Shown here: positions 19,711 to 52,875 of the stretch, in pieces | Numbering within the stretch: the stretch's first letter is position 1 | How the letters are laid out: each line of letters begins with the position of its first letter | Assembly: GCA_033763315.1 (NCBI GenBank) | Contig: JANRKS010000035.1 | Span: 160,001 to 224,000 of the forward strand | Source: Deltaproteobacteria bacterium | GTDB lineage: Bacteria > Myxococcota_A > Polyangia > Fen-1088 | DNA: 64,000 bases | Direction of reading: 5' to 3' | Program-made: the position numbers and the translations under genes | The notes under the pieces: model-generated | Database searches by the model: none | What the model was told of the DNA's origin: nothing | What the model saw: the letters and a program-made list of their open reading frames with translations, nothing else

Positions 19711-19784
19711 GGGGTGGTAGTTAAGTTGGTTATAACGCCGGCCTGTCACGCCGGAGGCCGCGGGTTCAAGTCCCGTCCACCCCG
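19711..19784 (+). tRNA. trnD: tRNA-Asp (GTC); CCA not encoded
   Basis: Acceptor stem GGGGTGG/CCACCCC, anticodon arm CCGGC-CTGTCAC-GCCGG (GTC at 19745-19747), T arm GGTTCAAGTCC, discriminator G. Confidence 0.97.
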
Positions 19785-21221
19785 CAACACAAGTACCAGA
19801 ATCTCCTCACTATTTTCCTCGCCGTGAGTGACCGTGAGTGAGGCTCCGCCGAGACCTCGGGGAGTGCTCCCGCCAGAAGCGGCCTTGGGCTGATCTTCGG
19901 GGCTGCCGTGTTGCCCTCCGGTGGTGCTAGGACCGCCAGCACCCCCGGACGCCGGCGATGAACTCCCGCCAGCGCCTGGCGGAGTCTGCGGCCCATTGGA
20001 ACCACCGGGGCCGCCTTTCGCGGGGTCCTGAGGGTCGTCCATGCGCAGCTTGAGCATCTCCTGGCACAAAGCCGTCCACGCACTCTTTCCGTGCAAGCGG
20101 GTGTAGCCATCGAAGACGTTCCGCCGCGCACCGTGGGTCATCCAGCGCAGTAGCTCGGGGTTGACGCCGTCGGCGATCGCCAGAGAAATGAACGTGGCAC
20201 GCAGGTCGTGCTGGCCCCGCTTACGAGCGCCATCGGCGATCTCGACCGAGAGGCCAATGCGCTCCATGCCTTCACGGAACTTTCGAAGCATGTGGTTCGC
20301 CGAGCGCGACCGCCCCTCGCGCGAGGGCACGAGCAGATCGTCGGGCTTCGCCGCCCTCCCCAAGGACTGCACCAGGCCACCGTCGGGCTTCAACCAGTCG
20401 TTGAGCAGGTTGCGCAGGATCGGATGGACGGGGACCAGCCGGACGCGCCCGGTCTTCGTCCCCTTCACCACCTTCTTCTTGGTGTTGTACGACGTTGCGA
20501 TGGTGATCTGGCCGAGCGGTTCGAGGTCGCGCCGGTAGTCCCGCACGCGAAGCGCCGCGACCTCGCCGAATCGTGCGCCGGCCGCGAAAAACATCGTGCC
20601 CCAGAAAACCCGACGGTCCTGTGGGATGCGCTCGTCGGTGATGAGCTTAAGGATCTCGCTTCGCTCGTAGACCGCGCCCTCGCGCCAATCCGAGTTGGCG
20701 TCGCGCTTCTCGGGGATGAGGCGTTTTTTCACCTGCCACGGGCTGCTTCGGAGCAGCCCATCGACCACAGCGTCGTCGAAGATTCGCCTGGCCAAGAAAA
20801 AGATGTTTCGCTGCGTTCGGGCGGCCAGACCGCTCTGCAACTTGAGGTAACGGACATGATCGACGGCATGCTGGGGTGTGATCTCGTCGATGCGAAATCC
20901 GCCGAGTCGAGGTAAGAGCCACTTCTTGGCGCGGGATGCGTCGTCCATGTCTGAGGACAGCCCATCCTTCTTCCGGTCGGGCAGCCAGCGGTTGACAACG
21001 TACGTCTCGAACGTGACGGGGCCGTTCTTGCCTCCGCTCACCTTGGCCGCGGCACGCAGTCGGCGCTCGACCTGGCGTGCAACATCGCGCGCCCGCTCTT
21101 CACCGTCCGGAGCGTCAGCCGGGACTTCGGTCTTCTCGCGTGCAGTGCGACCGTGTTCGTCCTTGTAACCCACCCACCAGAGAGGGCTGTCCGGCCGCTT
21201 GTAGGCGTATGCCATGTTCAC
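19746..21221 (-). CDS. int: tyrosine recombinase/integrase; ORF reads through attL into the tRNA antisense strand
   Basis: Catalytic R (GARFGEVAAL), K (TKTG), HxxR (HDLR), H (MTHG), Y (FDGY); N-terminal arm-binding-like WWVGYKDEHGR. Confidence 0.93.
   Translation of the reverse strand: MNMAYAYKRPDSPLWWVGYKDEHGRTAREKTEVPADAPDGEERARDVARQVERRLRAAAKVSGGKNGPVTFETYVVNRWLPDRKKDGLSSDMDDASRAKKWLLPRLGGFRIDEITPQHAVDHVRYLKLQSGLAARTQRNIFFLARRIFDDAVVDGLLRSSPWQVKKRLIPEKRDANSDWREGAVYERSEILKLITDERIPQDRRVFWGTMFFAAGARFGEVAALRVRDYRRDLEPLGQITIATSYNTKKKVVKGTKTGRVRLVPVHPILRNLLNDWLKPDGGLVQSLGRAAKPDDLLVPSREGRSRSANHMLRKFREGMERIGLSVEIADGARKRGQHDLRATFISLAIADGVNPELLRWMTHGARRNVFDGYTRLHGKSAWTALCQEMLKLRMDDPQDPAKGGPGGSNGPQTPPGAGGSSSPASGGAGGPSTTGGQHGSPEDQPKAASGGSTPRGLGGASLTVTHGEENSEEILVLVLRGGRDLNPRPPA
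19765..19787 (+). repeat. attL core (23-bp direct repeat)
   Basis: TTCAAGTCCCGTCCACCCCGCAA, identical to 52853-52875. Confidence 0.95.
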
Positions 21222-21610
21222 TTCCTCTCCCGACGAGCCCGCGACTTTTCGAGGATGCGGTCCGCCTGATCCTCGTTGGACGCGAGGTCGTTGTTGTCTA
21301 TTCGTCTCGCCTCAAGAAATTGGTGAAGTTCTTTCGGGTCGATGAGGTTGCCGCGAGGTCCGTAGCCCTTGAGCCCCTCCAGACGCCACCGTCGAAGAGT
21401 CTTCGGTGATCGAGAAATCAGCGTGGCGGCCTTCGTGATTGTAAGGAAGCGGCGACCACCGCCGGAGCTTGCTCGCCGAGCCGGGAGCCGCTGCTCAAGG
21501 AAGTTCATGATCTCCCGCCTGAGGTCCGCAACTGCCTCCTCAACAGCGGCGCGGGCGACCTCGCCAATCGCTTCGTCGACTGAAGCTCGCCGAGCAGTGA
21601 CCCTTGTCAT
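21218..21610 (-). CDS. HTH_17/excisionase-like DNA-binding protein
   Basis: FLTITKAATLISRSPKTLRRW helix-turn-helix; 4-nt overlap with int start. Confidence 0.75.
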   Translation of the reverse strand: MTRVTARRASVDEAIGEVARAAVEEAVADLRREIMNFLEQRLPARRASSGGGRRFLTITKAATLISRSPKTLRRWRLEGLKGYGPRGNLIDPKELHQFLEARRIDNNDLASNEDQADRILEKSRARRERK

Positions 21611-22068
21611 CTATCGCTGCTCCCGCGGGCCGACAACCGATCAGCCACAAGGATCATCTGCAAGTGGGTGGCGTCCGCAATTGTCCCCGGAGTTCCTCGC
21701 TTCCCGAGGCTGAGGATCTGCTCTCGCCGGAGCAACACTTCGGAGCACAAGAAGTCCAGCATCAGCAACACGTCATTCTCGGTGAAGATCTCGTGTCGCA
21801 GGAGAGTGATGAGAAAGCAGATCTCGTCGTAGTAGTGGTCAAGAAGCTCATCGGTGCACGGATGAGCTTTGGGGAAACCTTTCTCCAGCATCTCCCAGAC
21901 TCTGGATGTCGCGTACTCCCACAGATCGATCTCTTGGTCCGTTGGAAACCCATCCTCGGTCGAGGTCTCACCGAGGCCCAGAGGATTGCCGAAGAAGCCG
22001 CGAGGCGAATTCTTGATGCATTCAAAAAGACGCGCGCGGGGCTCCGAGAAAATAGGCACAATTCTCAT
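21607..22068 (-). CDS. hypothetical protein
   Basis: ATGA overlaps on both sides; no recognisable motif. Confidence 0.6.
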   Translation of the reverse strand: MRIVPIFSEPRARLFECIKNSPRGFFGNPLGLGETSTEDGFPTDQEIDLWEYATSRVWEMLEKGFPKAHPCTDELLDHYYDEICFLITLLRHEIFTENDVLLMLDFLCSEVLLRREQILSLGKRGTPGTIADATHLQMILVADRLSARGSSDR

Positions 22069-51552: not shown

Positions 51553-51816
51553 TCAGGCGATGGTGAAGACCTCGGCTGACGGAAGCCGAGCGTATGCCAA
51601 GCGCTCGCTGATGGAGCGCACGCCGTTCTCGATCTCCTGCATGCCGCGTTTGCCATGGTAGTCGGCGAGGTTGCGGGCCTCGTCGAAGCTGACGGAGCAC
51701 CGGACCAGCGTCGCCGGCATCTCTCGACCGTCCGGCAGGAATGCTCTGGCCTCGATCAAAACGCCTTCTGCCGTCGTGGTTCTGGTGATCCTGGTGTCGA
51801 TGACGATAGTGCTCAT
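51553..51816 (-). CDS. small hypothetical protein
   Basis: ATG 51816 in ATGA overlap with upstream ORF. Confidence 0.5.
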   Translation of the reverse strand: MSTIVIDTRITRTTTAEGVLIEARAFLPDGREMPATLVRCSVSFDEARNLADYHGKRGMQEIENGVRSISERLAYARLPSAEVFTIA

Positions 51817-52094
51817 AGCCGCGGGTCCTCTGGCAGTTCGTAGTAGCTCCCGTGCGAGGTCCGCCGAATCATTCCCTCGTCGGCCATCCACTCGTACAGG
51901 TCCAGCATTTCGGAGTCGTTATCCGCCGCGAGCACGTAGTGGTCGCCGGTCTGCCGTCTGCGCTCTCGAATGCGCGCCAGCTCCTCGCGGGCGCGTTTGG
52001 CGCGGCCCCTGTTCTTGAACGCCTTTATGCCTACCTTCACGGCATCGACTGCCTTGTGGGCATTGCCGACGACGGCGAGCGCTTCGATACCCAT
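51813..52094 (-). CDS. small hypothetical protein (possible winged-helix C-terminus)
   Basis: ATG 52094 preceded by GGAGG; LYEWMADEGMIRRTSHGSYYEL. Confidence 0.5.
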   Translation of the reverse strand: MGIEALAVVGNAHKAVDAVKVGIKAFKNRGRAKRAREELARIRERRRQTGDHYVLAADNDSEMLDLYEWMADEGMIRRTSHGSYYELPEDPRL

Positions 52095-52852
52095 CTTGGG
52101 GGCCTCCGGAAAAGAGATACACCTCGCCCCATCGGGGGCGGCCCTTGGTGATCTAACCACCCCCGTGGCGTCGTCTAGTGACTTCTGCAAGAGACTAAGA
52201 TTGTCGCCCCGCGCCGTACGCGTCGCCGGGCCGATCACTTGACGACCAGCCAACGCCCGCCCACTTGTTTGCAGCAACTCAACCTCGTCCTCCGTGAGGC
52301 TTACGTGTCCCCGTCCCCGTCCGAGGCTGTCGTCAATGCGTTCTGGCGACGCGGTCGCGTCGTGCGCGTTAACGTCGGGGCTGGATCCAGGAACGACTGG
52401 GCAGAGCGAACCGATCTCTCGAACAAACACGTCGGATTCGTAGCGCGCGGCGAGCGGCTGCCGTTCGTCCCCGTCCTGGTCCGGCTCGCTGAAGCTGGAC
52501 AAAGATGCTTACCGACCGAAAGTGAGTGGGATGCGCGGGATCGGCCGAGTTGATGGCGTCCACACCTGCCTCGCGAGTTCCATCCGCGGTTCCGGTCGTG
52601 AGGGCAACATTAGGGCGGCATATCCCTCTGCGTCATCCAGCGCCACCTCGTTCGCCGCCACCTTAAGTCGCCCGATCCAGCAGCCGTCCGAGCGCTGCAT
52701 GGACGCGACTCACGATCTCACGATGAGCGTCCACGGGTGGCGCACTATGTCCGCATGCGGCACAAGGCGCCGGGTCGGATGTCGTTGAATTTGTTATAGA
52801 ATGTCCGCTCACGTCCACGAGTGTCTCGATGACAACTTCGGGCTTTTTCGTA

Positions 52853-52875
52853 TTCAAGTCCCGTCCACCCCGCAA
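52853..52875 (+). repeat. attR core (duplicated tRNA-Asp 3' end)
   Basis: Identical to 19765-19787. Confidence 0.95.

Follow-up and report, generated by a model that had tools for sequence, protein, structure and literature searches.

The closest described counterpart of the system presented here is Myxococcus phage Mx8. According to an excerpt of PMC6070905, the phage attachment site, attP, lies within the Mx8 integrase gene and integration makes a new 3' end for that gene; the same excerpt describes the integrase as being modified in specificity by integration, and not inactivated. The target attB1 is placed within trnD1, a tRNA-Asp gene, in a section of PMC13454183, and a passage of PMC4383910 names Mx8 and SSV together as having integrases that extend across attP. 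Here, a comparable arrangement is described for a non-phage element in a 64,000-nucleotide (nt) stretch of Deltaproteobacteria bacterium DNA (assembly GCA_033763315.1, contig JANRKS010000035.1, positions 160,001 to 224,000 of the forward strand), which is called the window and whose coordinates are used throughout. The explanation preferred as a whole, with a rough probability of 0.55, is that an integrase gene (int) of the Mx8 family is split by integration in a non-phage defence island, so that the integrase (Int) exists in short and long forms that differ in activity. Taken separately, the architecture of a core inside int and an exchange of tails is judged very probable from the DNA, and a true difference in activity between the two forms of this Int is given somewhat less than even odds.

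Placing attP within int has been a known trick since Mx8, and island finders allow for an overlap between int and a tRNA gene. The novelty lies in a carrier that is not a phage, in direct homology to Mx8, in how broad the family is and in an indication that codons of the tail are also arm sites. An arrangement studied well in a single phage, Mx8, is thus extended to a defence island that is not a phage and whose two junctions are in one contig. The features that define these junctions are as follows (aa, amino acids; ORF, open reading frame; HTH, helix-turn-helix).

19711-19785, plus strand: intact tRNA-Asp(GTC) gene (ARAGORN), the host target (attB), in which the 3' part now comes from the element
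19765-19787: attL core, left copy of a perfect 23-nt direct repeat that takes in the tRNA from its T-loop through its acceptor end, with 2 nt more
19746-21221, minus strand: int in its integrated (IntX-like) form, 491 aa, a tyrosine recombinase and homologue of Mx8 Int
21218-21610, minus strand: excisionase-like HTH gene, 130 aa (HTH_17, phrog_66), its stop overlapping the int start (a position like that of uoi)
52663-52851, minus strand: int tail gained upon excision, 62 codons (52666-52851) plus TAA, also read as the P arm of attP, with one helix predicted at its end
52853-52875: attR core, right copy of the exact 23-nt direct repeat, the original tRNA-Asp 3' end, displaced
52876-52918, plus strand: hairpin and U-run (fold -23 kcal/mol), the original tRNA-Asp terminator, on the chromosomal side of attR
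52663-53175, minus strand: 170-aa ORF across attR, its downstream 70 codons being the core and int tail and its upstream 100 codons chromosomal

The tRNA-Asp(gtc) gene is the sole tRNA gene that ARAGORN finds in the 64-kb window, and its final 21 nt together with 2 further nt make up the crossover core. This 23-nt direct repeat, TTCAAGTCCCGTCCACCCCGCAA, is identical at 23/23 positions in its two copies, which bound an element extending from 19788 to 52852, or ~33 kb. The first 21 nt of the repeat occur at two sites only in the 7.6-Mb assembly when up to 2 mismatches are allowed. Further support came from the hairpin that follows the right copy, which folds at -23 kcal/mol (z -5.8), a value equalled by 0/200 shuffled sequences, and which resembles the terminator found 3' of tRNA-Asp in the same-genus genomes G001 and G002. 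Because a terminator of the tRNA type directly adjoins the right repeat, this copy is taken to be the displaced original end of the tRNA gene. In principle, another element could be the source of a 23-nt repeat of a tRNA end, in which case the right copy would be a chance match or a tRNA pseudogene fragment with no relation to the integrase. This is exceedingly improbable, as the genome holds only two copies, the original tRNA terminator follows the right one, and the sequence just inside that copy resembles what is found at the like position, beside the same core, in two genomes with related elements (G023 and G020). The att site is therefore regarded as real on the strength of the exact repeat, the terminator after its right copy and the homology to Mx8 set out below. 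A preliminary description of this DNA had located the att site inside int, and the ARAGORN tRNA, the exact repeat and the int frame confirm it in every coordinate.

The integrated gene begins at a GTG that gives 491 aa, or at an ATG two codons in (M3) that gives 489 aa, and the closest relative, P0003, starts at the position matching M3. Its product ends in ...VLRGGRDLNPRPPA, i.e. ...LRGGRDLN-PRPPA, and the stop codon (19746-19748) lies within the tRNA-Asp gene, antisense to it. Here, the final five codons, PRPPA (19749-19763), and the stop are tRNA antisense sequence. In this frame, the sequence at the right repeat is LRGGRDLN-TKKPEVVIETLVDVSGHSITNSTTSDPAPCAACGHSAPPVDAHREIVSRVHAALGRLLDRAT up to a TAA stop at 52663-52665; beyond the core it begins with TKKPEVV, holds PCAACG and ends in LLDRAT. 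As the core has no stop codon, int on the excised circle must continue for these 62 codons. The C-terminal exchange is thus one of 5 aa in the integrated state against 62 aa in the excised state, and Int is 491 or 548 aa in length, which agrees with the earlier reading of a 5-aa and a 62-aa tail and of proteins of 491 and ~548 aa. The core lies ~85 codons past the end of the catalytic domain. Reading the frame at both repeats shows that recombination at the 23-bp core would convert the 548-aa gene of the circle into the 491-aa gene of the chromosome, and the reverse.

In the mechanism proposed, integration would split int and leave a chromosomal gene that ends after five tRNA-antisense codons, and excision would rejoin the gene at attP so that 62 further codons are read. 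By analogy with Mx8 only, the long Int encoded by the circle would be the integration-proficient enzyme. By the same analogy, the short Int encoded by the chromosome, acting with the HTH excisionase, would be less active, limit excision and stabilise the integrated state.

The relation to Mx8 is one of homology, since tblastn aligns Int with Mx8 Int at E 3e-57, with 38.6% identity over residues 37-398 (362 residues, 74% of the query). Among 50,697 phage records, the only tblastn matches to Int are four records of Mx8. In the Mx8 record, intP (1154-2755) contains a 29-bp core at 2387-2415 and reads on for 112 codons past it; the core is antisense to the T-arm and acceptor end of a tRNA, and repeats are annotated within intP to its left and right. 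The attP of Mx8 reportedly functions only with arm sequences to either side of its core, within int, a finding credited to Magrini et al. in 1999. The two systems share a homologous integrase and a core that is the 3' end of tRNA-Asp and lies in int after the catalytic domain. In addition, both have an HTH gene at the start of int (uoi in Mx8) and repeats that flank the core inside int, and in both a long tail is replaced upon integration by a short one that the tRNA gene encodes. The likeness to Mx8 that had been proposed on first inspection is thereby upheld as homology, with a shared tRNA-Asp target and a core in a like place.

There are also differences. Mx8 is a phage, whereas the carrier here is not. 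The two genes read through the tRNA one base out of register, giving TGLEPV in Mx8 and GGRDLN here, and the tail is 62 aa in length compared with 112 aa in Mx8, to which its similarity is not significant. Finally, an insertion of ~60 residues rich in Gly, Pro and Ser is unique to the Int described here. It spans residues ~400-460 (window 19900-20080), upstream of the core and hence in both forms, and is missing from P0003 (434 aa), which is 59% identical to Int by BLASTP and 65% identical in a 13-sequence alignment.

The Int of myxophage Mx9 is likewise counted among the near counterparts. A second group of comparable systems is formed by the SSV-type archaeal integrases. In SSV1, the core is within the body of the gene and integration splits the integrase gene in two; unlike this, the catalytic domain remains whole here and the C-terminal appendage alone is exchanged. 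What is shared with this group, as a passage of PMC4383910 puts it, is an integrase ORF that spans attP. The element also has the form of the tRNA-gene islands found by Islander, with an intact tRNA gene, next to which the integrase lies, on one side and a displaced 3' fragment on the opposite side. Here, the integrase overlaps the tRNA gene in antisense, a case provided for as an explicit exception in the portion of the Islander description that deals with it. Island finders in general need to permit an int that overlaps a tRNA gene. Annotation pipelines can be expected to report two products at such a locus, an integrase of 491 aa and, across attR, a spurious ORF of 170 aa. The 100 chromosomal codons of that ORF have no codon bias, with a GC content of 0.59/0.60/0.62 by codon position, and they overlap the start of a BrxE-like gene in antisense.

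The integrase itself appears intact. In the 13-sequence alignment, which includes Mx8 Int, the catalytic residues R217, K256, H363 and Y373 are invariant and H338 and R341 are nearly so. Int is assigned to phrog_1, 'integrase', at E 1.5e-32 (PHROGs); a Pfam search with it has no match at E<=0.01 and only weak matches to N-terminal and central domains, and relatives of Int bear a precomputed match to PF00589. The HTH protein matches HTH_17 at E 2.2e-5 (25 bits, under the curated Pfam cut-off of 27) and phrog_66, 'excisionase and transcriptional regulator', at E 2.8e-6.

These observations bear on whether the element has become fixed as a remnant that has lost the ability to excise, in which case the long Int is never made. 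The left flank and tRNA-Asp are matched in two same-genus genomes at 70-81% identity. The right flank (52853-54800) has no match in these two genomes, the DNA downstream of their tRNA-Asp has no match in the host assembly, and an alignment of the empty site is not possible, which counts against the preferred explanation and leaves room for a remnant. The close relative in G023 is indeed a remnant, 5.2 kb in length with an int that lacks its first ~200 codons, and a further defence locus forms the right flank of the present element, suggestive of an old hot spot. A fixed remnant is nonetheless improbable, as the repeats are identical at all 23 positions, int is full-length with every catalytic residue present, and the excisionase-like gene, the polymerase gene polA and the primase-helicase gene are all open.

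If the element does excise, the question becomes what the exchanged tail does, and here the DNA that encodes it has to be considered together with the protein. The int sequence on both sides of the core carries repeats of the hexamer CGTGAG, as follows.

19823-19840, plus strand: tandem CGTGAGTG pair with 10-nt spacing, 36-58 nt from the core, inside int; candidate arm-type Int sites of the P' arm
52709-52722, minus strand: tandem CGTGAG pair with 8-nt spacing, inside the tail and in the opposite orientation to the P' pair; candidate arm-type sites of the P arm
52808-52813, minus strand: single CGTGAG inside the tail; candidate arm-type site of the P arm

There are 43 copies of CGTGAG in the window, of which 5 fall within the 352 nt that flank the cores, where 0.24 are expected. 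The motif was picked post hoc on this element and was thereafter tested on relatives. In their arms, 4/7 sites are counted in G023 (0.21 expected), 3/4 in G020 (0.40) and 2/2 in G028 (0.15), and none in the arms of the more distant G049, G015 and G016. The tandem pair of the P' arm is at an equal place in G023 and G028, and the conserved patches of the tail coincide with the CGTGAG repeats. These sets, flanking the core and both within int, are most likely the arm-type Int-binding sites of attP, and the tail DNA is read as being foremost the P arm of attP, with candidate arm-type sites embedded in coding sequence. The tail DNA would thus have two jobs, since the int sequence flanking the core carries inverted CGTGAG sets as candidate arm-type sites. 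A second repeat, GCGGACAT, occurs twice in the tail (52793-52812 and 52736-52750, minus strand), 57 nt apart, and encodes a repeated peptide, GHS. At the position of the first GCGGACAT, either GGACATTC or GAACATTC is retained in G023 and G020. Repeats of this type may be protein-binding sites of a second kind in the P arm.

The tail is similar to those of its nearest relatives when the core is excluded. Against the G023 tail, a Smith-Waterman score of 80 was obtained, compared with 23.8 +/- 4.7 for shuffled sequences, none of which reached it (0/1000). The tail at an attR-like site of G020 scores 41 (reached by 10/1000 shuffles) and the uninterrupted long protein P0016 scores 37 (32-38/1000). 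After the core, the int frame stays open for longer than either of the other two same-strand frames in 4/4 informative cases, the open lengths in codons for the int frame and the two others being 62/13/34 here, 78/18/3 in G023, 82/39/41 in G020 and 112/18/16 in Mx8; in G049, every frame is open after the core.

Several results weigh against a tail that is conserved as protein, and hence against a switch that works through it. Similarity to the tails of Mx8, L045, L049, L050, L051 and G049 is not significant. The chance probability of an open frame is 0.07-0.15 per case, and that of a 62-codon frame at the local base composition is ~0.15. The GC content at third codon positions (GC3) is 0.55 in the tail, compared with 0.78-0.81 in int, and in a three-way ungapped alignment the identical columns number 14, 12 and 20 of 49 at codon positions 1, 2 and 3. 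A matched-frame control, in which the same frame is compared in both DNAs, was used to separate conservation at the DNA level from that at the protein level. In this control, the reverse strand scores 74 with G023 and 56 with G020, compared with 80 and 41 for the int frame, and other frames are similar too. In addition, the tail scores 0.1 bits (reached by 59-70/1000 shuffles) with a hidden Markov model of a two-helix module, LALRQALAALDRGRLDxARxIL-like, which is found at the ends of 8/153 stored representatives of the family and in the G023 tail and which is well conserved there, with conservative substitutions. The CxxC motif of the tail, CAAC, is also missing from its three closest counterparts, G023, G020 and P0016.

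On account of this similarity in several frames and on the reverse strand, the conservation of third positions and the low GC3, the constraint on the tail points to the DNA, as an arm of attP, rather than to the protein. The preliminary description had proposed conservation of the tail in relatives as a check; similarity to the G023 and G020 tails is found, but it is not specific to the frame, and the CxxC is not shared. It had also placed a CxxC after a Gly/Pro linker in the new tail, and although CAAC is there, the linker is upstream of the core and so belongs to both forms. As CxxC is missing from G023, G020 and P0016, its reading as a conserved motif of zinc or redox type was rejected. The possibility of a longer, frameshifted tail or of a remnant of the two-helix module was likewise rejected, as the other downstream frames have no match to the module profile.

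The same evidence is what commends the view that the swap of tails is a neutral by-product. Here, int would overlap the arms that attP needs, the 62 residues would be translated on the circle but remain idle, and the excisionase and arm sites alone would set directionality. Conservation at the level of DNA, highest at third positions and seen in several frames and on the reverse strand, the low GC3, the match of conserved patches to the CGTGAG repeats, and a tail without the helical module of the family are all in line with it, as are core-encoded residues that are not conserved across the family, which follows from the use of all three tRNA-Asp antisense frames by its members. This alternative is a possible one, to be taken seriously, and is less probable than the preferred explanation. 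Against it, family members as a rule have a long tail after the core, the module in some of these tails is well conserved and varies by conservative substitutions, the int frame exceeds the other frames in open length in each of the four informative cases, and a 22-residue helix is predicted at the end of the tail with a predicted local distance difference test score (pLDDT) of ~86 (AlphaFold2 with a 3-row alignment; the rest is of low confidence, mean pLDDT 63.5). With regard to a switch between forms of differing activity, as the tail lacks the two-helix module here, any such switch would have to act via the single short helix or via the changed 3' context of int alone. In the integrated state, that context would be one in which int ends antisense to the tRNA gene and lacks its own terminator. 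As a compact system, the element could be used to test whether it is the exchanged tail or the overlapping arm sites that carry the regulatory effect.

How common the arrangement is was assessed with homologues of Int at E<=1e-30. A search of 60 related genomes gave 15 positives in addition to the host genome, and in these the stop of int is inside a tRNA or tmRNA gene, antisense to it, at 11/16 relatives' loci. The targets in the 11 loci are Asp (four), Leu (two), Glu (three), Gly and tmRNA. A further 31 loci came from GTDB species genomes, almost all of them labelled as metagenome-assembled genomes of Myxococcota; here, the stop lies inside a tRNA or tmRNA gene at 12/30 loci examined, several others end at a contig edge within the tRNA-derived peptide, and Gln, Asn and Lys are added as targets. 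In combination, this is seen at 23/46 relatives' loci, and the family targets Asp, Leu, Glu, Gln, Gly, Lys, Asn and tmRNA, so that the trait spans a large family of integrases directed at no fewer than eight (at least 8) tRNA/tmRNA genes. The antisense strand of tRNA-Asp is read in all three frames by different members (L004, L068, L073, L093 and others), which end in RGGRDLNPRPPA, GWTGLEPAASGVTGRRYNQ and DGTRTRGLRRDRPAL, each running to a stop codon. At L080 (Anaeromyxobacter sp. PSR-1), the ORF passes through the entire tRNA-Gly gene.

At the level of proteins, 573 cluster representatives match Int at the same threshold. A landmark at the end of the catalytic domain could be placed in 131 of the best 150 of these, and the median length past it is 105 aa. 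A crude count of motifs among the 131 gives 15 IntX-like ends, 28 with a T-arm-antisense peptide followed by more than 20 residues, and 88 without the motif. Viral contigs with uninterrupted int genes carry long tails.

In the widest reading, a self-rewriting integrase would be the ancestral rule of a large Myxococcota family, in phages and in virion-less, self-replicating defence islands alike. The codons of the tail would double as arm-type sites, protein tail and attP arm would evolve as one, and the two-helix module would have been lost here. This generalisation is speculative and judged rather unlikely to hold in full. The Mx8 family is a standard tool for integration in myxobacteria, and new pairs of int and att with other tRNA targets could be useful.

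Searches for closer copies of the tail covered proteins, metagenomes and viral contigs. The 70-aa tail (core plus 62 aa) had no match among 5.8 billion proteins at the 'longer' lengths, a metagenome scan with the tail alignment found none among 600 pattern matches, a further metagenome scan with the Int alignment gave no close relative (best 39%), and a scan of viral contigs with Int alone gave none. One match to the tail profile, in G106 (E 8e-4), was judged to be due to chance, as it falls in overlapping reading frames of ordinary genes, away from any tRNA. The remnant in G023 (L040, contig C99, 2792-7985) is a sister element of 5.2 kb between 25-nt repeats at tRNA-Asp, with the same core. 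Its int survives as a 293-aa ORF, the first ~200 codons being missing, with a tail that retains the two-helix module, and its cargo consists of two large ORFs of 757 and 477 aa.

The remainder of the element contains genes for replication and defence, arranged as follows.

22065-27117, minus strand: replication module (Pfam, PHROGs)
22065-24233, minus strand: family A DNA polymerase (PolA) with 3'-5' exonuclease, part of the replication module
23944-27117, minus strand: DUF3854/DUF927 primase-helicase, part of the replication module
29777-46679, plus strand: defence cargo HmaA, HmaB, GajA, GajB, a second HmaB and HmaC (PADLOC, Pfam)
48365-52502, minus strand: five right-end ORFs, including two MBL-fold and PDC-M48B-like (Pfam, PADLOC)

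Neither Pfam nor PHROGs reveals a capsid, portal, large terminase or tail gene among the 21 ORFs, 9 of which matched neither library. In PHROGs, structural categories are represented solely by the HTH protein, which matches 'terminase small subunit' (2.3e-5), and by the two MBL-fold proteins, which match 'tail protein' (phrog_7043). Likewise, the Pfam matches of the 21 ORFs, some of which are unannotated, include no relaxase, coupling protein or type IV secretion gene. The carrier is thus probably an integrative, virion-less defence island that replicates itself, and possibly a satellite; its earlier description as a non-phage element holds in that no virion genes were found among these ORFs. 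In the circular form, the five right-end ORFs would lie directly downstream of int. Within them, GC3 of 51813-52502 is 0.75.

The Gabija pair, GajA (36251-38059) and GajB (38056-39906), is located between the two copies of HmaB, the methylase gene of the Hma system (region 33243-43192). These copies share 300-nt stretches at 70-76% identity, ~6.9 kb apart.

As the right flank that bears a BREX locus is missing from the two same-genus genomes, tRNA-Asp looks like a hot spot for defence, with an older island beside a newer one. The BREX locus lies immediately to the right of attR, extends from 52970 to 64000 and comprises BrxE-like, BrxA, BrxB and BrxC genes. It continues with a Schlafen/AlbA_2-HATPase_c_4 gene and then with PglX, which runs past the end of the window.

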